Below, one piece after another: positions 32,799 through 50,612 of a DNA stretch of 57,968 bases (the stretch's first letter is position 1; each line of letters opens with the position of its first letter). The position numbers and the translations under genes are program-made. The DNA comes from Fidelibacterota bacterium (GTDB lineage: Bacteria; Fidelibacterota; Marinisomatia; Marinisomatales; TCS55): NCBI GenBank assembly GCA_046861385.1, contig JBHHTW010000013.1, positions 1-57,968 of the forward strand, read 5' to 3'. The notes beneath the pieces are model-generated. The model saw only the letters and a list, made by a program, of their open reading frames with translations, was not told the origin of the DNA and searched no databases.

Positions 32799-33032
32799 AT
32801 TGAACTATTTATGATGACTATAAAAATAATAAGTAAGAATACAAATACATGAATAATTTAGTTACCAACTTGGACCCTTTATGAGAAAACATATTTATAA
32901 GTACTGGTGCCGTAATAATATTGGACTGGGGTATTATAACGCTGTAAAATTGGTTAAACGAAAATATGTAATTGATGAATATTACATTTTACAGACTTAA
33001 ACTTTATCGTGGTTAGCAATCCAAATATAAAT

Positions 33033-33650
33033 ATGATTCGTACAATAAAATACAAAGCCGGTGAAATAATCCGACAAAAAAACGCTCATGTATATATACT
33101 ACATTTCATTTTTTGTTTATTGATTAGTTGCGCACCGTCAATTAAGGAGCTTTCAGAAACAGATCCTGAAGCTGTTATCAACAGGAAAAACGAATTACTT
33201 GCCGGCAGCTCTGTATCGAAAGAAGTAAAAACGGCGGTGATTAATGCCCATAATAAAATAGGCAATGAGGCATTAAGGCGGGAGGACTTAGAGGAAGCTG
33301 AAAAACAGTTCAATGAATCGTTGTTGTTAGATAATAAAAATAAACAAGCACATTACGGTTTAGCAATGATTAAAGGACTTCGCCGATTCAAGAAAGGAAG
33401 TAAGTCGGCACTATGGGAAGCCATGGAGAATTTTGGAAAAGCGGCCTTTTTTGACCCGGCAAAGGGAGACCCGCACTACTGGATGGGACGCACATATGAG
33501 AAAAAAGATGATGGAGATTTTGACCTTATAATTGAAGCATATGAAAAAGCATTAGGATTGCCTCTTCCAGACCCCTTGAAACAAGATGCTCAAAATAGAT
33601 TAGAATTAGTAAAAAAACACCAAAAAACCTTAGAGGATTTTTGGAACTAG
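33033..33650 (+). CDS. TPR-repeat lipoprotein
   Basis: Lipobox-like 'LLISC'; TPR-like helices ('AHYGLA', 'HYWMGRTYE', 'AYEKAL'); start uncertain (33009 or 33033). Confidence 0.7.
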   Translation: MIRTIKYKAGEIIRQKNAHVYILHFIFCLLISCAPSIKELSETDPEAVINRKNELLAGSSVSKEVKTAVINAHNKIGNEALRREDLEEAEKQFNESLLLDNKNKQAHYGLAMIKGLRRFKKGSKSALWEAMENFGKAAFFDPAKGDPHYWMGRTYEKKDDGDFDLIIEAYEKALGLPLPDPLKQDAQNRLELVKKHQKTLEDFWN

Positions 33651-33918: not shown

Positions 33919-35079
33919 ATGAATAAAAAATCGCTAATAAGATATGCTATTCTTAGCCTATTTCTTATTTTATGTAATACAATTCTTTTTGCGAAAGATT
34001 ATAAAGTAAGCGGAACTTTAGTCGATGCTAATGAAAATAAAATTGGCGGTGCAACCGTTCTGCTTCTCACGCCAGACGGCGTTGAATCTCAGCGAACCAA
34101 CACGTCAAAACCGCGTATGGGCATGGGGGGCGGAAGTTTCAAATTTAAAGATGTTCTTCCTGGGGACTACGCCCTGGAAGTAGATGCCGGAGCCAAAGGA
34201 TCTATAAATACACCCATAACAGTCACGGATACCGATGTTGAAGATATCGCACTGGTGTTATCCGTCAGCGATTCAAATACTGAAGAAGAATCCCCCACTA
34301 ATATCACCAGCGTTGTAACGGTACCGGAAGAGGCGGTTGAATCCGGAAGTTCCCCTGAATATGTGGCGACTGAGATCAGTTTTGAATTGAAAAAGTTAGG
34401 CGCTGAAATCAAACACTTAAACTCTGAATTGGAGGATCTCAAAGCGTTAAGTAAAATGTGGGTAAATCCTCTATCCATTTATTCCAAAGAAATTATCCTG
34501 CAAAATGGAAGCACCGTTTTCGGAAAAATTGTCTATCAGGACGAAGAAACACTTAAAGTAGAAACATTAGTAGGCTATTTAATCATTGAGAGAAAAAAGG
34601 TGGTTAGAGTAATCGATAATATTGTGTCAGAAGAAACTCAGGAATACGTTCCAGAGCAAATCAGAGACAGTTACTCTCCTCCTCCGATGCCAAAACTGGC
34701 AGAACCCAAGTATACTTCTGCAGATCCGCTTAATCGCAAAGCGGGAAAAAAATATTCTGCAAATTGTGTATTAGTTGGAAACATCAGTGAAAGCAAAGAC
34801 AATCAGGGCGCCATCATTTTCACGGGAGAGGTTAAAAATATCGGTGGACGCCGGGCAGATTTTGTAAAGGTTGATTTTGTTTTCCGTAAAAACTGGAGCG
34901 GTGAGACCAAAACACTTACCACGTTTGTCCGAGGAACTTACCACACTTTTGATTCTGGAATTACAACTGACGCGACGCTTCTTCCGGGCTCAAACGGGGC
35001 ATTCGAACTTTTTATCCCCAACGATTTTGGTTCATTTATAGGCTATTCTTATGTCATAGATTGGGAGGAATACCAGTAG
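33919..35079 (+). CDS. Secreted multidomain protein: carboxypeptidase-regulatory-like beta domain, coiled coil, small beta domain, FxLYD-like C-terminal domain
   Basis: Signal peptide; 'VSGTLVD..GATV.L..G.FKF.DV.PGDY.LEV'; heptads 'LKKLGAEIKHLNSELEDLKAL'; 'ILQNGSTVFGKIV'; 'GEVKNIG'. Confidence 0.65.
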   Translation: MNKKSLIRYAILSLFLILCNTILFAKDYKVSGTLVDANENKIGGATVLLLTPDGVESQRTNTSKPRMGMGGGSFKFKDVLPGDYALEVDAGAKGSINTPITVTDTDVEDIALVLSVSDSNTEEESPTNITSVVTVPEEAVESGSSPEYVATEISFELKKLGAEIKHLNSELEDLKALSKMWVNPLSIYSKEIILQNGSTVFGKIVYQDEETLKVETLVGYLIIERKKVVRVIDNIVSEETQEYVPEQIRDSYSPPPMPKLAEPKYTSADPLNRKAGKKYSANCVLVGNISESKDNQGAIIFTGEVKNIGGRRADFVKVDFVFRKNWSGETKTLTTFVRGTYHTFDSGITTDATLLPGSNGAFELFIPNDFGSFIGYSYVIDWEEYQ

Positions 35080-35969
35080 TGAAGGCACTGCAAAGTTCAC
35101 GTTGGCTTTTATATTATATAAGTGCTGGAATTATTTTTTCCACCCCTTTAATTGCTCAACGGCAGACATCATCACTCTCCGAAATATTTTTATTGGATCT
35201 AGGAATAGTTATTGAGCCTGAAACAGGTTCAGAAACATATTCCCGCCTTATAGAGACCCCGTCTCGAGAAGTAAATTTTAGGATTAAAAAGGTTCATAGC
35301 GGGTCTGTTTATATGGCAGCATCCGATGAATTATTAAGTGCAATTGAACGGATTAATGTTCGTATTTCTGATATGGAGACATCTTTTAAAAATGAACTGA
35401 TGGCGCTAAGGGCTGAAAACAAAGAGTTAAAAACTGTATTAACGAACTATCAATCAATCAATAACGAACCTAAAAAACCCATTATAGTGGCAGCGCCCGC
35501 CCCCCCTTCTCCAGAAAATGACATATTAATTGATCCATTACCCGAAGTGGCCAGTATACATATCGAACCCCTTTCTCCCGATAAATCTTTTAATCAGCGG
35601 ACATACATGGCAGGCGTTTTTGCATATCAGAGGGAAGACTTTGCGTCTGCTTTGAAATATTTTGCGAAGTTACATTTGGAATTAGCATCATTGGAAACAA
35701 TTGATAATGTAATGTACTGGACAGCGGATGCGTATCAACAAATCCATAATGATCAAAAAGCGCTTGAAATATTAGACAAATTAATAGAAAATCAAAATTC
35801 TTATCGTCTTGATGATGCGTTGGTAAAAAAAGGATTGCTGTATAAAAAAATCGGGCAATTAGATTTAGCAATGCAAGCATTCAGCCGGGTGGTAAAAGAG
35901 TATCCCAACAGTGAATATACTCGCTTGGCAAGTCTGGAACTAAAACGAGTGGAGATGGCTTTACAGTGA
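35079..35969 (+). CDS. Secreted coiled-coil + TPR protein (CpoB/YbgF-like layout)
   Basis: GTG at 35079 overlaps upstream TAG with GGGAGG RBS; signal peptide; coiled coil; Pro linker; 'MYWTADAY', 'DDALVKKG', 'F.RVV.EYP.S'. Confidence 0.75.
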   Translation: MKALQSSRWLLYYISAGIIFSTPLIAQRQTSSLSEIFLLDLGIVIEPETGSETYSRLIETPSREVNFRIKKVHSGSVYMAASDELLSAIERINVRISDMETSFKNELMALRAENKELKTVLTNYQSINNEPKKPIIVAAPAPPSPENDILIDPLPEVASIHIEPLSPDKSFNQRTYMAGVFAYQREDFASALKYFAKLHLELASLETIDNVMYWTADAYQQIHNDQKALEILDKLIENQNSYRLDDALVKKGLLYKKIGQLDLAMQAFSRVVKEYPNSEYTRLASLELKRVEMALQ

Positions 35970-37369
35970 GAAAAGTTAATTATAGTTTTATATCAATATT
36001 ATTGCTAATTACATCCTTATTGTTTGGAGCTACACGCGTGGCATATACACGCCCGGGTTTTATGATGAAAATTCCATCATCAAGCGTTCAGAAAGCGCCC
36101 TATTTATTCCGTACTGGTTTTGGGACAGAATTGCACAATTTTAATCCGTTTAATTCCGCCCAGGGTATTTATTTTGATATGGAACTTGGGAAAAACTTCA
36201 CATTTGGTTTTTCATCTGTACAAACAGCCGATACAACGGCGCTTGCTTTGCTGGGAACAACCGGATACACTCCTCCTGTAGAATTTGGATTTCACATACA
36301 GCAACGAGTCTACACTTATAATAATATTTCTCTTTCAATTGGTCTCCAAGACATCGTATTTCAAAACGCTGAAAGCGGCGGGTTAAGCCTTAACCCCGAG
36401 GAACTTTCCTTTTTTGCTGTCGTCAGCAGCGAGAAAAATCTCGGGAAATATCATTTAAGTACCTTTATGGGTTTTGGCTCTGGAGGTTTTTCTCCAGCGG
36501 ACACACTTGTTGATACAACAACCGCGATCACTAGTACAGCATCGAACAATACGACAACCCAGGCAGGTGTTTTTATGGGGTTAATAATGAACACGCCATA
36601 CTTGGAAAAATGGGGTGGTATTGATATTGTGGGTGAATTTGATGGTACAGGCATCAATGTGGGACTCCGCATCCCCCTTACCTCGGATTATCGCCTGAAC
36701 CTTGGGTTCACCCACATAGAAAAACTTCCAGATTTCAAAACCCGTTATTGGGAAGGGCATCCAGGGGTCACCCTCGGCTTTGATATGGCAGTTCCAAAAA
36801 CAGGACGCACTCCATCGTCAGAGGGCTTTGGAGGACCGTCGCCCCTTCCCGGCTCACAATTAAAACTTCCGGGAACCGGTCAATATGAATCACTCTCTTC
36901 GTCAGCGGATTCAACATTAGCGCTTGCAGATTATGCGGTTCATACTGTCCGAGACTCCATGACGATGTTGAAAAACGAAATGCGCAACCTGATGGTTAAC
37001 TTGGCTTCTATCCAACAGCAATCTCAATTTTTAGAGGATTCATTATTGGCAATGAAACTGAATCGTAATGTAGATGAAAAAAACATGAACGAAGCCATGC
37101 GGCATTTGTCTCGGTCGTTAAGATATTTTTATTCCGGGGATTACAGAGCAGCCTTACAAGAGGTGGAATCTGCTTTGGACTTAAACCCGAATCTGGCTTT
37201 AGCCTATGCCCGTCGAGGATCTATATACTATAAACTTGGAGATATTCAACGAGCAACCATCAACTGGAATCTAGCATTGCGCATGGATCCCGAATATGAT
37301 GATGTCAGAAACATTTTAAAAGCCCTACACGAAAACCGTTTAAAATCGACGAGTGTAGTAGAGGAGTAA
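35966..37369 (+). CDS. Probable outer-membrane beta-barrel (YjbH/GfcD-like) fused to coiled coil and C-terminal TPR
   Basis: Signal peptide; alternating beta-strands, 'SLSIGLQDI', 'GEFDGTGINVGLR'; C-terminal TPRs 'ALDLNPNLALAYARRGSIYYKLGD...ALRMDP'. Confidence 0.65.
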   Translation: MRKVNYSFISILLLITSLLFGATRVAYTRPGFMMKIPSSSVQKAPYLFRTGFGTELHNFNPFNSAQGIYFDMELGKNFTFGFSSVQTADTTALALLGTTGYTPPVEFGFHIQQRVYTYNNISLSIGLQDIVFQNAESGGLSLNPEELSFFAVVSSEKNLGKYHLSTFMGFGSGGFSPADTLVDTTTAITSTASNNTTTQAGVFMGLIMNTPYLEKWGGIDIVGEFDGTGINVGLRIPLTSDYRLNLGFTHIEKLPDFKTRYWEGHPGVTLGFDMAVPKTGRTPSSEGFGGPSPLPGSQLKLPGTGQYESLSSSADSTLALADYAVHTVRDSMTMLKNEMRNLMVNLASIQQQSQFLEDSLLAMKLNRNVDEKNMNEAMRHLSRSLRYFYSGDYRAALQEVESALDLNPNLALAYARRGSIYYKLGDIQRATINWNLALRMDPEYDDVRNILKALHENRLKSTSVVEE

Positions 37370-37373
37370 ATAG

Positions 37374-38156
37374 ATGGATATTGCAACACTAATAGGAATA
37401 ATACTTGGTTTAGGCTCTATTTTCAGCGGAATATTTCTTGCTGCATCGTCTGCAAATGCCGGTATGGGAGGTTTCGTATCACCTTCAAGCTTTGCGATTG
37501 TTGTGGGAGGAATGATTGCCTCCGTTTCTGTCGCTTTCCCCTTATCCGATGTTTTACAGCTGGGAGCGGCAATGGGTGCGGTGCTGAAAGGTGGAAAACT
37601 GAAACTGGGCACTGTTGTCGATGATGCAGTAGTGACAGCTGAAGTGGGAAGAAAAGGAGCGGCTGAATTAGAAAAAGCATTAGATGGAGTAAAAAATCCA
37701 TTTTTTAAAGATGGCGTACAAATGGTAGTGGACGGTTATTCGTTGGATGAATTGACCGAGATTCTGGAAACCCGCATTGAGTATAGGGAGATTCGCGAAA
37801 AAACACAAGCCGGGTTATTTAAATCGATGGGTACCATGGCGCCCGCCTGGGGGATGATAGGAACACTGATTGGGTTGGTAATTATGTTATCTGGTTTTGG
37901 CGGTGAAGGCGGAGCAGATGCGCTTGGTCCCGGTATGTCAGCAGCATTGATTACTACATTCTATGGCGCTGTTTTAGCGAATTTGTTTTTTCTACCCATG
38001 AGTGAAAAATTAAATACAAGAATTAGTTTTACCAGCACAATGCAAGCGATGCTTGTTGAAGCAGCGCGATTAATCCATCAGAAGAAGCACCCGTTAATTG
38101 TTCGGGAAAAATTAAATTCCTTTATTCCTCCTAAGGAGTGGAAAAAAGAAGATTAA
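37374..38156 (+). CDS. motA: Flagellar-type stator A subunit (MotA/PomA/MotP)
   Basis: 'MDIATLIG', 'IVVGG', 'RKG..ELE', 'F.K.G.QMVVDG', 'APAWGMIGTLIGL', 'ALITTFYG..LAN'. Confidence 0.92.
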   Translation: MDIATLIGIILGLGSIFSGIFLAASSANAGMGGFVSPSSFAIVVGGMIASVSVAFPLSDVLQLGAAMGAVLKGGKLKLGTVVDDAVVTAEVGRKGAAELEKALDGVKNPFFKDGVQMVVDGYSLDELTEILETRIEYREIREKTQAGLFKSMGTMAPAWGMIGTLIGLVIMLSGFGGEGGADALGPGMSAALITTFYGAVLANLFFLPMSEKLNTRISFTSTMQAMLVEAARLIHQKKHPLIVREKLNSFIPPKEWKKED

Positions 38157-38160
38157 TTAA

Positions 38161-38952
38161 ATGCCAAAAACAGCTAAAGAACAAAAAGCCTATAAAGCAG
38201 GCATCGCACAAGGAAAAACCCTTGTAGACGAAGGTCTACCCGGGTGGTTTGGAACTTTTGCTGATATGATGACGCTCTTGTTTGCGTTCTTCGTTCTGTT
38301 GGCGGCTATATCAACAATTGATCCTGTAAAGTTGCAGGAAATGGCTGATGCCATGGGTAAGTCTGTGGGTAGTAAGATAAAAAAGGAAAGCCAGGCTATG
38401 AACTTAGCGGACATTAAGAAAGCAGTTCAGGAAATGGTAAAAGAAATGCAAGAAGACTCTGAAACTGGAGAAACACCGGTTGAAGTTACTACCGGGCCAA
38501 AAGGAGTAACCATTGGAATTTCATCTGATATAAGCTTTGCCTCCGGATCAGCAAAAACAAAACCGCAGATTGTTGATATATTGACAAAAATTGTACCCAC
38601 CATAGAGAAGTCTTATTTCCAGATAGCTGTGGAGGGACATACAGACAATGAAAAACTACCTGAAGCATTACAAGTCAAATATCCCACAAATTGGGAGCTG
38701 TCGTCTGCCAGAGCATCGGCGGTTGTAAGAGAATTAATTAGACTGGGGGTGAACCCCACTCGATTGGAAGCAGTGGGTTATGGCGAATATGTTCCGCGGG
38801 ATCGCGCGTCACATGAGTTAATTACGGCTGAGGTGATAATGAAATATAATAACACACAGGACCAAAAATCCAGAAACAGGCGTGTGGAAATTACATTCCT
38901 GGCTCCAAGTTACAGCAGGGCCGGTGGAGATGAAAGCGAGAGCAATTCATAG
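38161..38952 (+). CDS. motB: Flagellar-type stator B subunit (MotB/PomB/MotS) with OmpA-like peptidoglycan-binding domain
   Basis: 'WFGTFADMMTLLFAFFVLL' with the ion-binding Asp; 'VEGHTDN', 'NWELSSARA', 'NRRVEI'. Confidence 0.92.
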   Translation: MPKTAKEQKAYKAGIAQGKTLVDEGLPGWFGTFADMMTLLFAFFVLLAAISTIDPVKLQEMADAMGKSVGSKIKKESQAMNLADIKKAVQEMVKEMQEDSETGETPVEVTTGPKGVTIGISSDISFASGSAKTKPQIVDILTKIVPTIEKSYFQIAVEGHTDNEKLPEALQVKYPTNWELSSARASAVVRELIRLGVNPTRLEAVGYGEYVPRDRASHELITAEVIMKYNNTQDQKSRNRRVEITFLAPSYSRAGGDESESNS

Positions 38953-38996
38953 CCAAATGAATTATGAGAAAAATTTCGATAAGCAAAGGAGCTATC

Positions 38997-40535
38997 ATGA
39001 GAAAAGTTAATATTTACTGTAGATCATTTATACTGGCAATATTTTGCCTCAGTGTGAGCTGGGGACAGAATAATAATTATTTAGCCCAGAAATTGATGGT
39101 TGAAAATGATTTGCGCCAGCGTATAACTGATGCTTTATCTAAAATTATTGATGACAGAAAATATGTTATCGATGTTAAAGCCGATATTGAAATCAGTGAT
39201 GGTACGGAAGAACAAATCACCATCATGGGAGAAGGAAAACAACCACCGTCAGGTCAAGTATTAGAAGATGTATCATCGGATTTACAACAATCATTAGAAA
39301 AGCCTTCTTCTGACAGATCTTCCGGTATATCAAGCGGCTTGCCTATCCCCGGATTCGAGTTTGAATCAGATGGTGGAGACGCTTACGCGGCAGAAACCGG
39401 AACCGAACCTGAAATGTTAACTCAAAGCACCCCTTCTTTAAGCTCCAGTCAAAAGAGTAATATATTATCAAGAACTGTAACGAGTCGCCGCCCATCGAAA
39501 GCAATAATTACAAAATTGGATATCAGTATTATTTTACAGGAAGGAGCCGCTCCGGAATTGATTGAAAATATACGTCAAGTCGTTATGGTTTCTTCCGGTT
39601 TTAATAGAGCCCGGGGCGATGCCTTAAGTATTATGACAGCTACGTTTAAAGAACGACGAGACGAAAAAACAGCGGAACAGATTTTATTAAAAAATATTGC
39701 TGAAAAACTTGAATCTCTGGAACAGCAGCAATCAGGCGACGGTTCTGTTCACTGGAAAGATGAACTGGATAGCTATAAAGCTCAGGAAGAAGAAAGGCGC
39801 GAGCAAGATAAATTGTATTTCCAGCAGCAACTCACTAATCTGGAATCAGAAGCAAGAAATCGTGCGTATCAAACAGAAAAAAGAGAGATGTTAAGACGTG
39901 ATTCCTTAAAACTTATAGAGTTAAACAAAGAAATCAATGACTTAAAATCAATGATGGCTTCTTCTGATGTTTCGGTGGATGAAGTTGGACAGGCCCAAAA
40001 TGCCATCGGTGAAAAAATCAGCGAGAAAGAATCGCTGGATGTAAAAATTGCTGAAAAACTGGCCATGCTTGATGCGGTTCAATCCGATCTTGATCGCAGT
40101 ATGGGCGGTGGGCCTTCTACAATGATGGTTGTTTTCGTTTCCCTTTTGGGTGCGTTGGTAATCGTCTTGGTTGTGGCGCTGATAATCATAATGATGGGAA
40201 ATAAACAAAAACAGCAACTTCCACCCCCGTGGATGTACCCACCTCGGCCTCGGAAAAAAAAAAGTAAAAATAAACCAGTGACACCCATTACCCAACCGGC
40301 GCCATCTGCACCTGCACCCCGACCTGTTGAAGATACTGCCGTTCTGCAAAGCGAAGTTTCTGATATGAAACAAGCCGTTGTCTCCATGAGCGTTGGGCAA
40401 CCGGGTACTGCCACAAGAATTGTAAAAGAATGGATGGAAGACGATGTGCCGCCGCCAGAACCGGAACCGGCTGCTCCTGTGGAAGCTGAAGAAGAAGATA
40501 GCGGTAAAAAGAAAAAGAAAAAAAAGAAAAAGTAA
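38997..40535 (+). CDS. Truncated FliF-like ring protein (signal peptide, RBM3/beta-collar, coiled coil, single TM, FliG-binding-type tail)
   Basis: 'VENDLRQRITDALSKII....VIDVKADI' and 'ITKLDISIIL...IRQVV..SSGFNRARGD.LSI...F' match the FliF C-terminal periplasmic domain; 'PGTATRIVKEWM' matches FliF tails; AAGGAG RBS before ATG 38997. Confidence 0.72.
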   Translation: MRKVNIYCRSFILAIFCLSVSWGQNNNYLAQKLMVENDLRQRITDALSKIIDDRKYVIDVKADIEISDGTEEQITIMGEGKQPPSGQVLEDVSSDLQQSLEKPSSDRSSGISSGLPIPGFEFESDGGDAYAAETGTEPEMLTQSTPSLSSSQKSNILSRTVTSRRPSKAIITKLDISIILQEGAAPELIENIRQVVMVSSGFNRARGDALSIMTATFKERRDEKTAEQILLKNIAEKLESLEQQQSGDGSVHWKDELDSYKAQEEERREQDKLYFQQQLTNLESEARNRAYQTEKREMLRRDSLKLIELNKEINDLKSMMASSDVSVDEVGQAQNAIGEKISEKESLDVKIAEKLAMLDAVQSDLDRSMGGGPSTMMVVFVSLLGALVIVLVVALIIIMMGNKQKQQLPPPWMYPPRPRKKKSKNKPVTPITQPAPSAPAPRPVEDTAVLQSEVSDMKQAVVSMSVGQPGTATRIVKEWMEDDVPPPEPEPAAPVEAEEEDSGKKKKKKKKK

Positions 40536-40544
40536 GGTAACAAT

Positions 40545-41477
40545 ATGATTACAGATTACAATAGACTTTCCGGTCTGCAAAAAGCAGCCGTTCTTTTCTC
40601 CGTTTTAGGTGAGGGGTTAGCTCTCTCTCTTGTTAAAGATCTTTCAAAGACTGAAATTCGAAAAGTACGAGCAGCGATGCGCGATTTGGATAATGTCTCA
40701 TTTTTAATAAAAAAACGAGTTATGGAAGAATTTTACTTCAGTTTTGTCAGTGAAAAATTTTATGATGAAAATTCTGACGAACCCAAAAAACCGTTCTCAT
40801 TTTTAGACGATATTACAGATGAACAATTATTTGCGCTCATTAAACCAGAATCTGCATCAGTGGCCGCCATTGTTTTGGCACAGATTCCGGGAGAAAGACG
40901 AATGAAAATTGTGGAGCGGTTCGATGCTATGTCAAAAGGTGAAATCATTATGGAAATGGGAAATCTAAAGGATATTCCACTTGAAGCGGTCGTAAGCGTT
41001 GCAACCGACCTAATGAAAAAATCCAAATTATTACCCAAAACAGTTGCTTTCTCCCGGGGCGGAGGAAAAGATATTGCTGACATTCTTGGCGGATTATCAT
41101 CGGAGGAAGAAAAATTATTTCTTGAAAATATTTCTCGAGAAAACCCGGAATTAGCAGATGATATTAAAAAATATCATTTGACCTGGGAGATCATATTCGA
41201 AGTATTACCCGACAGCACGTTACGCGATTTAATGAATTCTGTCGAACTGGATTCCATTGCCATGGCGCTGAAAGGAATGCCGGAAGACGTTGTGAATCGG
41301 GTGATCGAAAATCTACCGCAAAAGAAACAGGCTATGTATGAACCGGTTGAAGGGGCTGTTTCCAAGCGGGAAGTTGATAATGCAAGAAAACAAATTGTAT
41401 CCTCCGCGAAAAAAATGGAAAAAGACGGAGCTTTCAATCTGTCGGACTTAGTCGGCGGTGGAGACATGGTAGAATAA
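40545..41477 (+). CDS. fliG: FliG-like rotor protein (divergent)
   Basis: 'LSGLQKAAVL...LG', 'PFSFL', Gly-Gly linker 'RGGGKDIADIL', 'PELA..IK', 'A.ALKG', 'V...EV..A...I'. Confidence 0.88.
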   Translation: MITDYNRLSGLQKAAVLFSVLGEGLALSLVKDLSKTEIRKVRAAMRDLDNVSFLIKKRVMEEFYFSFVSEKFYDENSDEPKKPFSFLDDITDEQLFALIKPESASVAAIVLAQIPGERRMKIVERFDAMSKGEIIMEMGNLKDIPLEAVVSVATDLMKKSKLLPKTVAFSRGGGKDIADILGGLSSEEEKLFLENISRENPELADDIKKYHLTWEIIFEVLPDSTLRDLMNSVELDSIAMALKGMPEDVVNRVIENLPQKKQAMYEPVEGAVSKREVDNARKQIVSSAKKMEKDGAFNLSDLVGGGDMVE

Positions 41478-41651: not shown

Positions 41652-42959
41652 TTGAATAATTTGATTGAAAAAATAGAAGAATATATTTTATCAGGATGTA
41701 CCCATAAAGAAAACAGGGCAATTGGTGTAGAAGTAGAATCTATTATCTATAACAAACGCGGTGAACGAATTCCGGTAGATTCCAAAGAAGAATTTTCAGC
41801 ATTAGATTTTATCGATAGGATTACATCTGAATGCGAGGATCATCATTCATTTGTAACCTGCTCTCTGGAGCCGGGCGGCCAGGTGGAATGGGCATCCAAA
41901 CCGGCCGTTACGATTCATGAATTAAACGATGAATTAAACACAATTAAAAATGCAGTTAAAATAGTGTGTTCGGAAAATGATTTAACGGTAGTAGATTTAA
42001 GCCTTGATCCTGTTTATGGGCCAAATGAGATTAAACTAATTAATCAGAAAAAATACCAGTTGATGCACAAACGATTTACGTCATCGGGAACACTCGGCCC
42101 ATGGATGATGCGTAATACGGCGAGTGTTCAAATAAATATTGATTTGCTTGATAAACAAGATGCAGAAGAATGTGGATTTATTGCCGATTGTATCAGCCCT
42201 TTTGCCGCCATGATGTTTTCCAATGCGCCATTCATGAAAAGCCAACCCGTCGGATATGAAAATATTCGGTATAAAATCTGGGCGGATACAGATTCTCCGC
42301 GTTGCGGTTATTTTATGGATCATGGAATGAATGATAGCGACGGTCTAATATCACAATTCGCTGAATATATTCTGGATGTTCCTGTTATTTTTACAACTCC
42401 GGATCAACAAAATGAAGTGGGATATTTTAACGGCACCATTGGTGAATGGCTGACGGCAATAGAAGAAAAAAAACAGATAAAGTATGACGATATTAAAACA
42501 GCGCTCCACCAAATATTTACCCATAATCGTTTCAAAAGCGTTTTGGAAATTCGTTCACCGGATAGACCACCACATGGATATGAATTAGCTCCGGCAGCTT
42601 ATTGGACAGGGTTGATGGAAAAAGGAAAAATCAGAGAATCATTATTAGAAACACTTTCAAGCTGGACGATAAAAGAACGGACGGCAATGAATCTAAAAGC
42701 CCTTTCGATTGATATAAAACAAGACGGTCCAAAACAAAAGTCTATTTTGCAATGGTTGGAATGGTTTGCGGAATTAGCGCTCGAAGGTCTTGAGAACAGG
42801 GCGAGCCGCCTGAATATTCCATCAGAAAAAAGGTATATTGAACCATTCACAAACGATATTTTTTCAAAGGGAATTTTCTCCCTTCAGGTTCAGGAAGATT
42901 TTGCTAAACAGAGTAAGTCCGTAAAAGACTTCATATTAAGGAAACGAGAGAATGATTAA
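41652..42959 (+). CDS. Glutamate--cysteine ligase (GCS2; GshA/EgtA-like)
   Basis: 'IGVEVE', 'SLEPGGQVE', 'MMRNTASVQIN.D', 'F.N.PF', 'R..IW..TD..R', 'LEIRS.D'. Confidence 0.88.
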   Translation: MNNLIEKIEEYILSGCTHKENRAIGVEVESIIYNKRGERIPVDSKEEFSALDFIDRITSECEDHHSFVTCSLEPGGQVEWASKPAVTIHELNDELNTIKNAVKIVCSENDLTVVDLSLDPVYGPNEIKLINQKKYQLMHKRFTSSGTLGPWMMRNTASVQINIDLLDKQDAEECGFIADCISPFAAMMFSNAPFMKSQPVGYENIRYKIWADTDSPRCGYFMDHGMNDSDGLISQFAEYILDVPVIFTTPDQQNEVGYFNGTIGEWLTAIEEKKQIKYDDIKTALHQIFTHNRFKSVLEIRSPDRPPHGYELAPAAYWTGLMEKGKIRESLLETLSSWTIKERTAMNLKALSIDIKQDGPKQKSILQWLEWFAELALEGLENRASRLNIPSEKRYIEPFTNDIFSKGIFSLQVQEDFAKQSKSVKDFILRKREND

Positions 42960-46814: not shown

Positions 46815-46850
46815 AATAAAAAAGCCCCGGAATATCGGGGCTTTTTTATT
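46815..46850. terminator. Bidirectional intrinsic terminator between sdhB and tonB
   Basis: Perfect 15-bp inverted repeat AATAAAAAAGCCCCG-gaatat-CGGGGCTTTTTTATT between convergent genes. Confidence 0.9.
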
Positions 46851-47463
46851 TAAGTCTAAAATTAACCGGGATTGAAATCCAAACCCCTACAGCACGTTCC
46901 CGCTGTTTCGCCGGTCTAAAACGTGTTCTTCGAATCGCTTCAATTGCGGCTTCGTCCAATCCGGTGTTTGGGATACCTTTTAAAATCGATGTTTCTTTTA
47001 CTCGTCCTTTTTTATCAACAAAAACCTGAACAATAACCGTTCCTTCGATGCCGGCTTCCTGGGCGATTTCCGGATATTTCGGGCGAATAGGCGATAACGG
47101 TTTTGGTGGGTCATCATAGGGAATGAATTTTACCTGCGGTCCTTCCGGCGGCGGCGGCGGCGCATCCCAAGCCTCAAAACTTTCTAAATCCGTTTCTTCA
47201 ATGGTTAGGTCATCCGCAAGGTCTTCAGACTCCGACTCAATCGGCACAGAAGGTCTTGCCGGAGGCGGGGGTAAATCAAATTGCTGTGTCTGAGGAATAT
47301 CAATCTGTTCGATGATAATTTGATTCGCATCTTCTAATACAACTGTTGTGAAACTTCGAGGAACAAACAGAAAACCAAATGTAATGATCAATATTCCAAC
47401 AAGCCCTGCAATCCTCACCGTTAAGGAATAGTTAAATTTCAGTTGGGGTGTATAATCGCTCAT
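46846..47463 (-). CDS. tonB: Energy transducer TonB
   Basis: N-terminal TM, Pro-rich linker, 'YPEIA..AGIEGTV.V...VD..G', 'F.PA'. Confidence 0.9.
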   Translation of the reverse strand: MSDYTPQLKFNYSLTVRIAGLVGILIITFGFLFVPRSFTTVVLEDANQIIIEQIDIPQTQQFDLPPPPARPSVPIESESEDLADDLTIEETDLESFEAWDAPPPPPEGPQVKFIPYDDPPKPLSPIRPKYPEIAQEAGIEGTVIVQVFVDKKGRVKETSILKGIPNTGLDEAAIEAIRRTRFRPAKQRERAVGVWISIPVNFRLK

Positions 47464-47466
47464 GAT

Positions 47467-47877
47467 TTAATTAACAGCTGTTTTCGTAGAATAGTTAAGC
47501 TTTAATGCATCAGCTTTCCGCAATTCATTGTGTATATTAGAAATAAGTCCCATTTTTGCAGATTTGTCTGCTTTTAGGGAGACGGTTAATAATGGGTCAG
47601 CTGAACGAATCTCATACATTACATGACGTACAGATTCTATATTATGCAATTTATCTTGAATGGATATCAAGCCTTTTTTATCCACAAAGACATGAGCAGT
47701 ATGACGTTTGGATTTTAATTTTTCAATACGTTTTGCCCGGGGTAATTCGACAGGCAAACCATCATATTCACGAAGAACGGTTGTGACCATAAAAAATATC
47801 AGCAGCATAAATATAATGTCCGGCATCGATGCCGTTGGGATGTCGCTTGAAATTTTCGTCTTACGTTGAACTTTCAT
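47467..47877 (-). CDS. exbD: ExbD/TolR family protein
   Basis: 'SMPDIIFMLLIFFMVTT', 'LKADK'. Confidence 0.9.
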   Translation of the reverse strand: MKVQRKTKISSDIPTASMPDIIFMLLIFFMVTTVLREYDGLPVELPRAKRIEKLKSKRHTAHVFVDKKGLISIQDKLHNIESVRHVMYEIRSADPLLTVSLKADKSAKMGLISNIHNELRKADALKLNYSTKTAVN

Positions 47878-48272
47878 TAGTCGGACTCAGCAATGGATAT
47901 TCGTTTTGCATTGGCCATTTTTAGCTGATCAATCACAGAAATATAGTCGCTATATTTTGTTTTTTCATGAGCCTTCACAGAAATAATCAGCTTATCATTT
48001 TCCGCAATTCTACGACGAATTTCCTTACTAATATCACTTATTCTTACAGGATCACGGCCCAAAAGAACATCGCCCTTTGAATTAATAAGACAATTTAGGA
48101 TATTGTCTTTCTTTATTTCTATCTCTTCACCCTCCGCGGGGAGTACGATACCCAACCCTTTATCCATATCTATCGTAGTTGTCACTAAGAAAAAAATGAG
48201 CAGAAGAAAGGCAATATCTGCCATGGAAGAAGTCGGGATTTCACCCCCTTTGAATCGACGCTTATTTTTCAT
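47877..48272 (-). CDS. exbD: ExbD/TolR family protein
   Basis: 'SMADIAFLLLIFFLVTT'. Confidence 0.9.
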   Translation of the reverse strand: MKNKRRFKGGEIPTSSMADIAFLLLIFFLVTTTIDMDKGLGIVLPAEGEEIEIKKDNILNCLINSKGDVLLGRDPVRISDISKEIRRRIAENDKLIISVKAHEKTKYSDYISVIDQLKMANAKRISIAESD

Positions 48273-48290
48273 TCGCTTTGATTCTCGAAA

Positions 48291-48908
48291 TTATTTATTT
48301 AATTGCATTTCATATAGTTTATCAACCAATTGGATTGAATGCTCCTCCATTTCCAAAACCAGTTTATCAATTCTGGAAACAAATAAGTTTTGAAAAATTT
48401 GGATAATCATTGCGACAATCAGACCAAAAGCAGTGGTTAACAATGCCTGTGAAATACCACCGGCAACAACAGCGGGTGAAATATCATCCGCAGCAGCAAT
48501 AGCATCAAAAGCAGAAATCATCCCGGCGACTGTACCTGTAAAACCAAGCATCGGAGCAATGGTAATAACAGCATTTAGCCAAATCATGTTTTTTTCAAGA
48601 AAAGACATTTCTAAGGAACCGGCGTTTTGAATTGCCTTTTCAACTTCTTCTAAACCTCTGTTAATTCGAGAAAGACCAGCATGAAAAATTTCAGCTACAG
48701 GACCGTTTGTTTTTTCACAAAGCTCCATGCAGGCTTTTTCACCCTCATTCTTCAATGTGTCATTAACATCATCGAAAAACTTTTGTGCATTAATTGATGA
48801 CATGATCAGTGAATAAAAACGCTCACCTGCAAAAGCAAGCCCAAAAATCAATGACAATAATATTGGCCACATAAAGGGACCACCATTTACGAAATATTCG
48901 ACTAGCAT
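48291..48908 (-). CDS. exbB: ExbB/TolQ proton channel protein
   Basis: 'GG.FMWPI', 'APMLGFTGTV.GMI', 'GISQALLTTAFGL'. Confidence 0.9.
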   Translation of the reverse strand: MLVEYFVNGGPFMWPILLSLIFGLAFAGERFYSLIMSSINAQKFFDDVNDTLKNEGEKACMELCEKTNGPVAEIFHAGLSRINRGLEEVEKAIQNAGSLEMSFLEKNMIWLNAVITIAPMLGFTGTVAGMISAFDAIAAADDISPAVVAGGISQALLTTAFGLIVAMIIQIFQNLFVSRIDKLVLEMEEHSIQLVDKLYEMQLNK

Positions 48909-49007: not shown

Positions 49008-50612
49008 TTACTGAGAATAATTTATGAATCCAGCCGCTTCGTTAAAATAATCTAAAGCGTCCATTACTTGGTTATCATAAGTCAGACGGATACTGATTGC
49101 TTCATCTTTACCCCAATAAGCACCTGCAATTTCTGATTTTAGCATTTTTAAAATATATGCTTTATCTATTTCCAGTTCATCCTGATTGATTTCTACTCCT
49201 TCACTTAGAGTATATTCAATAAAATTATAGAAATCATTATCGTTAAGCTCCCAATTATGCTTAAAGTCTTCGAATAGACTAAATTCATCTTTGTGGGAAC
49301 TGGCATAATTAGAACCCCAGTTGAAAAAGGGTCGTTTTGGGCTCGATAATAATTTTTGAGTATTTTTTTGCAAATCAAGTTCCCAGCGAATATAAATATC
49401 GGGAGTGATTCCACCTCCGCCATATACTTCGCGCCCGCCCCTGGTTGCATATTTTGGTCTAAGCTTTTTCAATGAATCCAAAACAGATTCACGATCCTGG
49501 ACATATAATTCTTTATAGTAATCTCTTGCGTCTCCATTCTTAAATGGGCGTTGTATCAACCTTCCACTGGGCGTATAATAGCGGGCGATGGTCACGCGTA
49601 TTGCTGATCCGTCATTGAGAGGTAACTGTCTTTGCACAAGTCCTTTTCCAAAGCTGGTTTCACCCACAACCAGTCCGCGATCTAAGTCCTGAATCGCCCC
49701 GGCCACTATTTCACTTGCGCTCGCCGATCCGCGATTGATGAGTACAATTAAGGGATAATCTTCTCTGCCTTTTTTGGGATCGGAAATAAACACTTGTTCC
49801 ACACGAATACTTTTCCCCTTTGTAAACACTAATGTGTCGCTATGGGCAATAAACAAATTACTGATGGCCGCGGCTTGTTCTAAATATCCTCCACTGTTAT
49901 TTCGCAAATCAAAAATCAGCCGTTTCATGCCTTGTGCCTCTAATTGATTTAAGGCAGTTCGTACTTCTTCATCCGTCGTGGCTGAAAAACGTGTTAACCA
50001 AATATAACCGGTTTCATCATCGATCATCAACACCGCCCGGACACTGTAGATTGGTATATCATCCCGAATAATTGTAACATTGAATTCATCTCCGCCAATT
50101 CTTCGAATGGTTATTTCAACAGAAGACCCCTTTAGCCCCCTGAGCTTTTTAAAGACATCTTTTTTTGTTATTTCAAAAGAGTCTTCGCCATTAATGGCAA
50201 TAATCTGATCCCCTGGCAGAAGCCCCGCCCGCTCAGACGGACTATCTGCCACGGGTGAAATAACTGTTATGTAACCGTTTAAAATGTCAAATTCAATCCC
50301 AATCCCCTGAAACGAACCACGGAAAAGTTCACCAATCTCTTCTTGTTGTTCAGCCGGGATATAAACAGAATGGGGATCCAATTCATCAAATATACCTTCG
50401 AACGCCCCTTCCAAAAGTTTATCCATGTCCACATCTTCATAATATAGCTGATTGATATAATAAAGAATTTGATTGAGAATTTTAAACTTTTCTTCTAGAA
50501 TATTTGCGGGATTTTTTGAATATAGAAATTGGGATAATGGTATAGCAGCTAAAAAGACGACCATGATCACGGTCAGTACAACTGGGAAGCGTTTTATGAA
50601 TCGATTTTTCAT
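49008..50612 (-). CDS. S41 family carboxy-terminal processing protease (CtpA-like)
   Basis: 'LDPHS', PDZ 'GIGI', 'DLRNNSGG', 'SASASEI', 'SFGKGLVQ', 'ARYYTPSG'. Confidence 0.94.
   Translation of the reverse strand: MKNRFIKRFPVVLTVIMVVFLAAIPLSQFLYSKNPANILEEKFKILNQILYYINQLYYEDVDMDKLLEGAFEGIFDELDPHSVYIPAEQQEEIGELFRGSFQGIGIEFDILNGYITVISPVADSPSERAGLLPGDQIIAINGEDSFEITKKDVFKKLRGLKGSSVEITIRRIGGDEFNVTIIRDDIPIYSVRAVLMIDDETGYIWLTRFSATTDEEVRTALNQLEAQGMKRLIFDLRNNSGGYLEQAAAISNLFIAHSDTLVFTKGKSIRVEQVFISDPKKGREDYPLIVLINRGSASASEIVAGAIQDLDRGLVVGETSFGKGLVQRQLPLNDGSAIRVTIARYYTPSGRLIQRPFKNGDARDYYKELYVQDRESVLDSLKKLRPKYATRGGREVYGGGGITPDIYIRWELDLQKNTQKLLSSPKRPFFNWGSNYASSHKDEFSLFEDFKHNWELNDNDFYNFIEYTLSEGVEINQDELEIDKAYILKMLKSEIAGAYWGKDEAISIRLTYDNQVMDALDYFNEAAGFINYSQ

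Follow-up and report, generated by a model that had tools for sequence, protein, structure and literature searches.

The window analysed here is a 57,968-nucleotide stretch of a Fidelibacterota genome (assembly GCA_046861385.1, contig JBHHTW010000013.1, forward strand), and its gene at 38997 to 40535 encodes a relative of FliF, the flagellar MS-ring protein. This FliF-like gene is the sixth of seven tightly packed plus-strand genes, hereafter the cassette, which run from 33919 to 41477 with gaps of -19 to +44 bases. Because it sits in a conserved operon with genes for FliG, MotA/MotB and outer-membrane proteins, in a host that lacks a flagellum, the gene probably builds a rotary envelope machine. 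An original prediction, drawn from the letters of the DNA alone, had read the protein as a FliF relative reduced to the domain RBM3, and every element on its list (a signal sequence, a split RBM3, an acidic stretch, helices, one transmembrane segment, a linker, a tail and a poly-Lys end) was found in its place. The features are as follows; pLDDT is the predicted local distance difference test of an AlphaFold2 model.

38997..40535, plus strand: FliF-like gene, 512 amino acids; an alternative upstream ATG at 38964 would add 11 residues
38997..39065, plus strand: signal-peptide-like N-terminus, residues 1-23; MRK, a hydrophobic core, then SVSWG before Gln (MRKVNIYCRSFILAIFCLSVSWG before Q)
39069..39224, plus strand: first half of RBM3, residues 25-76 (helix 25-47, strands 56-66 and 70-76); pLDDT 90-97
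39225..39470, plus strand: beta-collar loop, 82 residues, disordered; pLDDT below 50
39339-39356, plus strand: LPIPGF motif inside the beta-collar loop; P118 and G119 in at least 90% of 49 sequences
39471..39647, plus strand: second half of RBM3, residues 159-217 (strands 159-165 and 169-181, helix 186-200, strand 209-215), from model, Foldseek and alignment
39648..40118, plus strand: charged helical segment, residues 218-374 (about 157 residues); pLDDT mostly 80-94
40119..40199, plus strand: single transmembrane helix, residues 375-401; Kyte-Doolittle peak 3.3
40335..40442, plus strand: cytoplasmic FliF-type tail, helices 447-467 and 469-482; W479 invariant in 49 sequences

Domain layout and kinship of the FliF-like protein

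Translation and hydropathy give the N-terminus a basic n-region, a hydrophobic core of 13-14 residues and small residues at positions -3 and -1 before a glutamine; this residue (Q24), which follows the putative signal peptide, is kept in at least 90% of 49 sequences. The first RBM3 block reads QKLMVENDLRQRITDALSKIIDD..YVIDV and aligns to Vibrio FliF from Vibrio residue 270, and the second ends in GFNRARGD...F (GFNRARGDALSIMTATF). The loop between the two is acidic and rich in Ser, Gly and Pro (Asp and Glu 16%, Lys and Arg 5%, Pro and Gly 20%), and residues 85-155 are disordered in the model, which was built on a 49-row family alignment (mean pLDDT 73.9, above 90 in the RBM3 core). It had been predicted as an acidic insert at the beta-collar position: the acidity and the position are borne out, whereas the loop is no insert, being the ordinary beta-collar loop of FliF, in which the LPIPGF motif aligns with 'vagIPGalsnqpp' of Vibrio FliF in the profile search. 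Across 115 sequences the alignment-based length of this loop ranges from 28 to 152 residues (median 82). Acidic residues precede the transmembrane helix and KQKQQ...RPRKKKSKNK follows it (PPPWMYPPRPRKKKSKNK), so that by the positive-inside rule the protein would lie with its N-terminus out and its C-terminus in. The cytoplasmic part then consists of a Pro/Lys-rich linker (PPPWMYPPRPRKKK), a tail that closes on ATRIVKEWM (SMSVGQPGTATRIVKEWM), an acidic, Pro-containing stretch and nine Lys.

Four approaches agree that the protein is a FliF relative reduced to RBM3. First, Pfam YscJ_FliF_C (PF08345, RBM3) matches it over the entire 147-position model (E=1.3e-9) and YscJ_FliF (PF01514, RBM1-RBM2) has no match in it at E<=1, the very pair of Pfam results that had been proposed as a check. 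Second, residues 29-232 align to positions 238-449 of the 555 in the NCBIfam model TIGR00206 (fliF), at a score that misses the equivalog cut-off (22.9 bits versus 129.75). Third, the profile of the FliF-like family finds Vibrio FliF in the PDB (E=1.6e-8). Finally, a Foldseek search of the PDB with the model gave 18 matches at E<=0.001, and all 18 are FliF MS-ring or RBM3 chains (E 2.9e-7 to 1.4e-5, with a TM-score on the target of 0.5-0.6 for the RBM3-only chains); the best non-significant match lies at E=0.12. A lack of structural likeness to RBM3 would have spoken against the prediction, and it is the RBM3 of FliF that Foldseek returns.

Compared with FliF of Salmonella and Vibrio (PDB 8z5v, 8t8p, 7d84, 6scn, 6sd1), the protein shares the fold and topology of RBM3, the beta-collar loop with its IPG motif, a transmembrane helix after RBM3, a tail of the type ...VK.W(L/M) at the very end and a fliG gene directly downstream. 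It differs in lacking the first transmembrane helix, RBM1 and RBM2, so that it has one membrane-spanning helix (375-401) where FliF has two flanking its periplasmic part; in its signal-peptide-like N-terminus; in the roughly 157 helical residues between RBM3 and the transmembrane helix; and in its Pro/Lys-rich linker and poly-Lys end. FliF itself assembles as a ring of about 33-34 subunits. RBM1 and RBM2, had they been encoded elsewhere, would also have undone the prediction; PF01514 was found neither in this open reading frame nor anywhere in the host genome, whose assembly (2.43 Mb) is 97.85% complete. FlhA, the core of the type III export gate, likewise has no match in that genome, in line with the claim that the ring hosts no such gate. 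Given the absence of RBM1, RBM2 and FlhA, a ring of this protein could hold no type III gate.

SpoIIIAG, the RBM3-like ring of a sporulation channel, has no export gate either; it carries an N-terminal transmembrane anchor and belongs to a sporulation operon. As a domain of the RBM3 type that occurs without RBM1, RBM2 or a type III gate, it is indeed a parallel, and a Foldseek comparison with it had been suggested. This comparison upheld RBM3 itself but gave FliF as the closest structural relative, and SpoIIIAG is absent from the rows listed for the model. Unlike SpoIIIAG, the FliF-like protein is anchored at its C-terminal side, continues into a tail of the FliG-binding type and has MotAB and FliG as partner genes.

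The segment between RBM3 and the membrane had been described as a coiled coil of about 150 residues. It is helical (helices 223-247, 253-321 and 327-370 in the model; Asp and Glu 22%, Lys and Arg 16%), but only part of it has the pattern of a coiled coil: 6-7 of 8 heptad a/d positions are filled in the stretch of about residues 290-330, as against 3-5 of 8 elsewhere. Its alignment-based length in 115 distinct sequences has a median of 158 residues (interquartile range 151-166, range 42-216), and it behaves as a tunable spacer rather than a fixed shaft. The extremes are found in particular lineages. Short forms of about 390-405 residues, with RBM3, transmembrane helix and tail kept, occur at locus L017 (G001:C50) and in other genomes of family f15; long forms of about 630-690 residues, in which the loop counts 152 residues and the helical segment is extended, occur at locus L020 (G015:C8) and in genus g32. 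Of RBM3, Pfam recognises just the second half in the long forms; it finds no RBM1 or RBM2 there, and PF01514 has no match at E<=0.01 in three of them (P0149, P0153 and P0163). A search for fused or longer homologues gave no protein of 897-2560 residues that matched the FliF-like protein at E<=0.001, which is weak evidence. We also noted a single in-frame stop within the FliF-like match of eight genomes (TGA in G011, G029, G058, G070 and G110; TAG in G045, G105 and G117), which may be read-through of the true C-terminal stop or a real interruption.

The cassette and its flagellar-type partners

The other genes of the cassette, and one looser member upstream of it, are listed below.

33009..33650, plus strand: TPR protein A, 213 amino acids, looser upstream member with TPR Pfam matches; 268-base gap to the next gene
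33919..35079, plus strand: secreted protein or lipoprotein; CarboxypepD_reg-like beta-sandwich, then a conserved C-terminal part of about 240 residues; PF13620 E=2.3e-7, below the curated cut-off
35061..35969, plus strand: TPR protein B, YbgF/CpoB- and BamD-like; TIGR02795 (tol_pal_ybgF) E=3.4e-10, below cut-off; TPR_6 E=6.6e-13
35966..37369, plus strand: outer-membrane barrel-TPR protein with signal peptide, 12-strand beta-barrel, 75-residue helix and near-invariant TPR tip
37374..38156, plus strand: MotA-type stator A subunit; PF01618 E=1e-27
38161..38952, plus strand: MotB-type stator B subunit with plug, transmembrane Asp and OmpA-like peptidoglycan-binding domain; MotB_plug E=2.4e-15, OmpA E=1.6e-13
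40545..41477, plus strand: FliG-like rotor protein; FliG_N E=1.3e-17, FliG_M E=1.3e-8, FliG_C E=6.3e-19, all over the Pfam cut-offs

The FliG-like protein, encoded directly after the FliF-like gene, matches the PDB FliG 3hjl at E=7.5e-21 and misses the equivalog cut-off of TIGR00207 (110.7 bits versus 226.7). Charged residues of its C-terminal helix are conserved among 69 orthologs (K260/K261, E266, E269 and K274 in at least 80%, R275 in at least 95%). Its middle domain departs from the flagellar pattern, since ESAS stands where both PDB FliGs have EHPQ, and only the Glu of ESAS (E102) is conserved in the 69 orthologs; the MFVF of the PDB FliGs aligns to HLTW. EHPQR is the FliM-binding site of the FliG middle domain, and the loss of EHPQ fits the absence of FliM and FliN from the host.

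A FliF-type tail had been proposed for the FliF-like protein, and its C-terminus is indeed colinear with the extreme, FliG-binding C-terminus of Vibrio FliF (VGqpetAtrIvkdWLed versus ANEPELAAQVVKNWMND), a likeness that is weak when taken alone; the tail by itself has no match in the PDB at E<=10. A weak complex prediction points the same way: residues 1-100 of the FliG-like protein and residues 436-495 of the FliF-like tail scored 0.44, a weak pass, with 0.01 for the best control, at least 87% contact agreement between runs and a partner pLDDT of at least 62. The mark that defines a pass is reached by 58 of 80 solved complexes and by 2 of 110 mismatched pairs, and scores of 0.60 or less comprise seven of the passing solved complexes and both passing mismatches.

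The stator genes are of the flagellar type. MotA matches Clostridium sporogenes MotA over its full length (8ucs/6ysf, E=2.5e-36), and PomA structures are matched end to end as well. At least 95% of 84 orthologs share its residues R93, K94, G95, L99 and E100, of which R93 and E100 align to R93 and E100 of the C. sporogenes protein. The corresponding residues of E. coli MotA, R90 and E98, pair with FliG D288-D289 and with FliG R281, respectively, according to the available part of a published account (PMC12505986). In MotB the FADMMTLL segment, which includes the transmembrane Asp, is conserved in 76 orthologs. Both proteins miss all NCBIfam equivalog cut-offs; their best NCBIfam matches are MotP, PomA and MotA, with TolQ only at E=0.0096.

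The model of the barrel-TPR protein (AlphaFold2, pLDDT 72.7) has 12 strands in residues 46-277, a disordered linker, a helix at 316-390 and TPRs at 393-455. Its fold resembles outer-membrane barrels of 12 to 14 strands: Foldseek matched FapF, OMPLA, OmpG and a designed 12-strand barrel at E of about 1e-5 to 2e-4, and the best match is FapF, a polypeptide transporter. The protein has 58 invariant columns in an alignment of 29 sequences. Upstream of it, the gene for TPR protein B overlaps the genes on both sides. The beta-sandwich protein has orthologs in 78 of 86 related loci, and its residues from about 148 to 386 are 45-61% identical in six distant ones; TPR protein A has an ortholog, at the level of open reading frames, ahead of the cassette in 58 of the 86. 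Scans for promoters and terminators along the cassette did not rise above shuffled sequences (27 versus 25.9 and 12 versus 8.8).

Beyond the cassette lies a gene for a GCS2-type glutamate-cysteine ligase (window 41652-42959), also seen at 13 of 80 related loci, on the same strand in 11 and on the opposite strand in 2; it is probably a mere neighbour. An ExbB-ExbD-ExbD-TonB operon (PF01618, two ExbD, TonB_C) occupies 46846-48908 on the minus strand, 5 kb downstream of the cassette, next to a gene for an S41 tail-specific protease at 49008-50612.

A rotor-stator reading of the cassette

We next considered what such a cassette may do in this host. PF01514 (RBM1/RBM2), FHIPEP (FlhA), FliMN_C (FliM/FliN) and Flg_bb_rod (rod) gave 0 matches in the host genome, and each of these models detected its targets in 4 flagellated control genomes. 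The sole FliG_C and the sole YscJ_FliF_C match of the host are the two genes of this operon. None of the 29 genomes sampled from the order of the host has a match to canonical FliF (PF01514). The MotA/ExbB family has four matches in the host genome, the ExbB of the TonB operon and three MotA-type proteins. Besides the cassette there are thus two further MotA/MotB-like sets, a pair at G000:C36:60161-61705 and a MotA with two MotB-like genes at G000:C95:10145-12363 (both on the minus strand), and neither has FliG or FliF nearby. The C36 pair adjoins a 687-residue frame with a type IX sorting domain (C36:63719-63943), and close orthologs of its MotA are widespread in the phylum.

The FliF-like protein is a new FliF variant, and the non-flagellar rotor-stator cassette that encodes it is undescribed. 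A literature search gave no description of the cassette; its genes may be listed in the gene tables of papers on SAR406 genomes. In their available parts, PMC13277936 and PMC5596340 do not mention it, a stator classification omits it (PMC12505986), and rotor proteins in non-motile species are raised as a general question (PMC12199754).

We consider it likely, by a modest measure, that the protein is a membrane-anchored rotor ring subunit and that the cassette forms a rotor-stator core which is driven by ions, is linked to the outer membrane and is not part of a flagellum. The N-terminal 350 residues would be exported by Sec, and the RBM3 domains, by homology, would oligomerise into a periplasmic ring resembling the S-ring, in which each subunit is tethered to the inner membrane by its helical segment and its single transmembrane helix. 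On the cytoplasmic side, homology and the weak complex prediction suggest that the tail recruits the FliG-like protein. Stators of the MotA5B2 type, anchored to peptidoglycan by the OmpA-like domain of MotB, would use ion flow to push the charged helix of the FliG-like protein and so turn the ring, as the conserved residues suggest. Such a machine would work without switch complex, export gate, rod, hook or filament, and would not switch direction. In the periplasm the ring may engage the envelope proteins of the operon through the IPG loop or the helical segment; the main candidate contact is the outer-membrane barrel, whose 75-residue helix and TPR tip are predicted to reach inwards, and through this contact the work of the motor would reach the outer membrane or the cell surface. 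The original prediction had guessed at a drive shaft or a conduit towards the outer membrane, and the operon context (MotA, MotB, FliG and an outer-membrane protein) makes the rotor or drive part the better half of that guess.

The proposed core resembles the torque-generating core of the flagellum (MotA5B2 or PomA5B2 with FliG on FliF), as the four proteins are encoded next to one another and conserved, and as the MotB plug, the OmpA-like domain, the charged residues of MotA and the three FliG domains are all kept. In contrast to that core, it is found in a genome without matches to FliM/FliN, the export apparatus or the rod, and without hook, filament or P and L rings; EHPQ is lost; and the cassette joins these genes to those of the barrel-TPR protein, the TPR proteins and the beta-sandwich protein. 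To our knowledge, the flagellar rotor proteins FliF and FliG are known only as parts of a flagellum. A free-standing rotary motor of MotAB, FliG and an RBM3-only FliF ring, coupled to a barrel-helix-TPR protein, would constitute a new class of envelope-spanning machine, and we regard the case for this wider claim as evenly balanced.

Several observations weigh against the rotor reading. The alignment of the tail to Vibrio FliF is non-significant when taken alone (domain i-Evalue 76-150), and because solved FliF-FliG complexes exist, the weak pass of the tail with FliG_N may also reflect likeness to them. The charges of the torque helix in the FliG-like protein are only partly equivalent, with one acidic residue and a Pro where Thermotoga maritima FliG has Asp-Glu. 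The helical segment counts just 42 residues at locus L017, versus 157 in the window protein, and since it is nearly absent there, the system can do without a long stalk. Of 151 Marinimicrobia (SAR406, Fidelibacterota) genomes, 96 of them high-quality, 55 gave no match to the cassette. They include every genome of family f3 (7 genomes, roughly 1 Mb in size) and of genus g30 (22 genomes), so that the cassette is dispensable for some lifestyles. Finally, the only cultured member of the phylum is called non-motile in the available part of its description (PMC11652737).

The alternative that survives best, although we find it unlikely, is an energised link between inner and outer membrane, akin to Tol-Pal or TonB, instead of a freely turning rotor. 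MotAB would pull on the FliG-like and FliF-like proteins, and the helical segment and the ring domain would pass the force to the barrel-TPR protein and the YbgF-like TPR protein, and so help to keep the envelope intact, to constrict the outer membrane or to drive transport across the barrel. The cassette does bring together an ion-driven motor of the 5:2 type, a protein with long periplasmic helices, an outer-membrane protein and a peptidoglycan binder, the same types of part that make up Tol-Pal. The resemblance of TPR protein B to YbgF/CpoB points in this direction as well, as do the fold match of the barrel to the transporter FapF and the lack of a TolQ-type gene among the four MotA/ExbB-family matches of the host. 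However, TPR similarity is generic, and the stator is flagellar in type and not TolQR, as seen from its MotB plug, its NCBIfam ranking and its full-length matches to MotA and PomA structures. The FliG-like protein has three domains with conserved charges, and we know of no three-domain FliG that is anything other than a rotor part; moreover, RBM3 is a ring-building module. Tol-Pal, TonB-ExbBD and GldLM are inner-membrane ion motors whose action spans the periplasm, and the cassette resembles this group in its 5:2-type ion motor, its long periplasmic helices, its outer-membrane partners and its YbgF-like TPR protein. It differs in that its motor is of the MotAB type and would act on a FliG/FliF-type ring and not on TolA, TonB or GldM, and its periplasm-spanning protein is reversed in topology, with the transmembrane helix at the C-terminal side.

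Distribution in the phylum and significance

The profile of the FliF-like family matches 96 of the 151 genomes, among them 69 of the 96 high-quality ones, and 24 of 25 families; it does not match the canonical FliFs of the phylum, which (by PF01514) are present in 38 of the 151. By a hand tally, the FliF-like protein occurs in 25 of the 38 genomes with canonical FliF and in 71 of the 113 without it. Gene order was followed in 80 species-level loci, collected through the barrel-TPR protein as the best 80 of 327 relatives; the titles of these 80, where they name a phylum, are nearly all Marinimicrobia, Neomarinimicrobiota or Fidelibacterota. MotA, MotB, the FliF-like and the FliG-like gene stand in the same order and on the same strand in all 55 loci that reach at least 5.6 kb downstream; the other 25 end early. 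Seventy loci extend far enough on the upstream side; tblastn detected both the beta-sandwich protein and TPR protein B in 52 of these, and left at least one of the two proteins, usually TPR protein B, undetected in the remaining 18. One of the loci (L064), a 1.8-kb contig with the barrel-TPR gene, comes from a bin whose title is Nitrospinales; it was probably misbinned and does not point to a second phylum. In the ESM Atlas a single cluster resembles the barrel-TPR protein, and its commonest taxon is Margulisiibacteriota (score 0.97), which is a lead only.

This distribution bears on a second alternative, which we hold to be very improbable, namely that the cassette is the type IX secretion or gliding motor of the phylum and replaces GldL and GldM. 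The host genome does encode SprA (E=4e-177, in a frame of 2082 residues) and 53 frames with a C-terminal type IX sorting domain, and the available part of a published survey reports SAR406 genomes to be rich in genes with the Por sorting domain (PMC5596340). GldM (TIGR03517, PF12081) and GldL (TIGR03513) have no match in the host, and PF12081 (GldM_1st) none in the 151 genomes. This silence is weak, because the GldL and GldM models exceeded their cut-offs in no control genome; either the GldL/GldM motor is very divergent in these genomes or another motor is used. SprA, however, is found in 149 of the 151 genomes, far beyond the range of the FliF-like protein, and the two part company in family f3 (SprA in 7 of 7, cassette in 0 of 7) and in genus g30 (21 of 22 and 0 of 22), neither of which has any MotA-type match at E<=1e-30. 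As SprA is present in lineages that have neither the cassette nor a MotA-type gene, a role of the cassette as general type IX motor is disfavoured.

The flagellum itself suggests two further alternatives, both of which we consider scarcely credible. That the cassette is the decaying remnant of a lost flagellum, without a function of its own, would agree with the failure to find any other flagellar part searched for in the host, and remnants in non-motile species are discussed in the available part of PMC12199754. Six genes of the cassette are nevertheless under selection: between relatives at unsaturated distance, the ratio of non-synonymous to synonymous substitution rates (dN/dS) is 0.08-0.11 for the FliF-like protein and 0.03-0.07 for the FliG-like protein, MotA, MotB, the barrel-TPR protein and the beta-sandwich protein (0.06-0.07 for the last), that is 0.03-0.11 over six genes. 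The constancy of gene order, the presence in nearly all families, the conservation of functional residues and the inclusion of non-flagellar partner genes speak against decay as well. Moreover, since the FliF-like protein accompanies a complete canonical FliF in 25 of 38 genomes, it must belong to a separate system and not to a decayed flagellum. The reverse idea, that the cassette is an accessory of a true flagellum (an additional motor, or a device for its assembly or anchoring), could appeal to the same 25 genomes, but it is at odds with the 71 genomes that have the cassette without canonical FliF, with its own FliG and its own stator, and with its location on another contig or far from the flagellar locus in the six genomes with both systems that were checked.

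In these six genomes the seven-gene order is kept at 6 of 6 loci, and the FliF-like protein has no BLASTP match at E<=1e-3 to any frame of the six loci that hold canonical FliF. The canonical FliGs of the phylum are 21-28% identical to the FliG-like protein (6 of 6), whereas the FliG-like proteins of cassettes across the phylum are 39-46% identical to the copy in the window. The cassette is therefore an old paralogous system, and the flagellum is neither its source by decay nor the machine that it assists.

The cassette is thus strongly conserved in one of the most abundant phyla of the deep ocean, where it is kept in streamlined genomes of about 2 Mb that have no flagellum and also beside true flagella. 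For annotation, this means that matches to FliF, FliG and MotAB in these genomes do not imply swimming. If the cassette turns, it would offer a minimal rotor-stator that can be studied without the 40-gene background of the flagellum, and a new bacterial route by which ion-motive energy reaches the outer membrane. If the reading as a new class of rotary machine is true, a rotor-stator of FliF, FliG and MotAB works here without a type III secretion core, which would bear on the origin of the flagellar motor or on the re-use of its parts.

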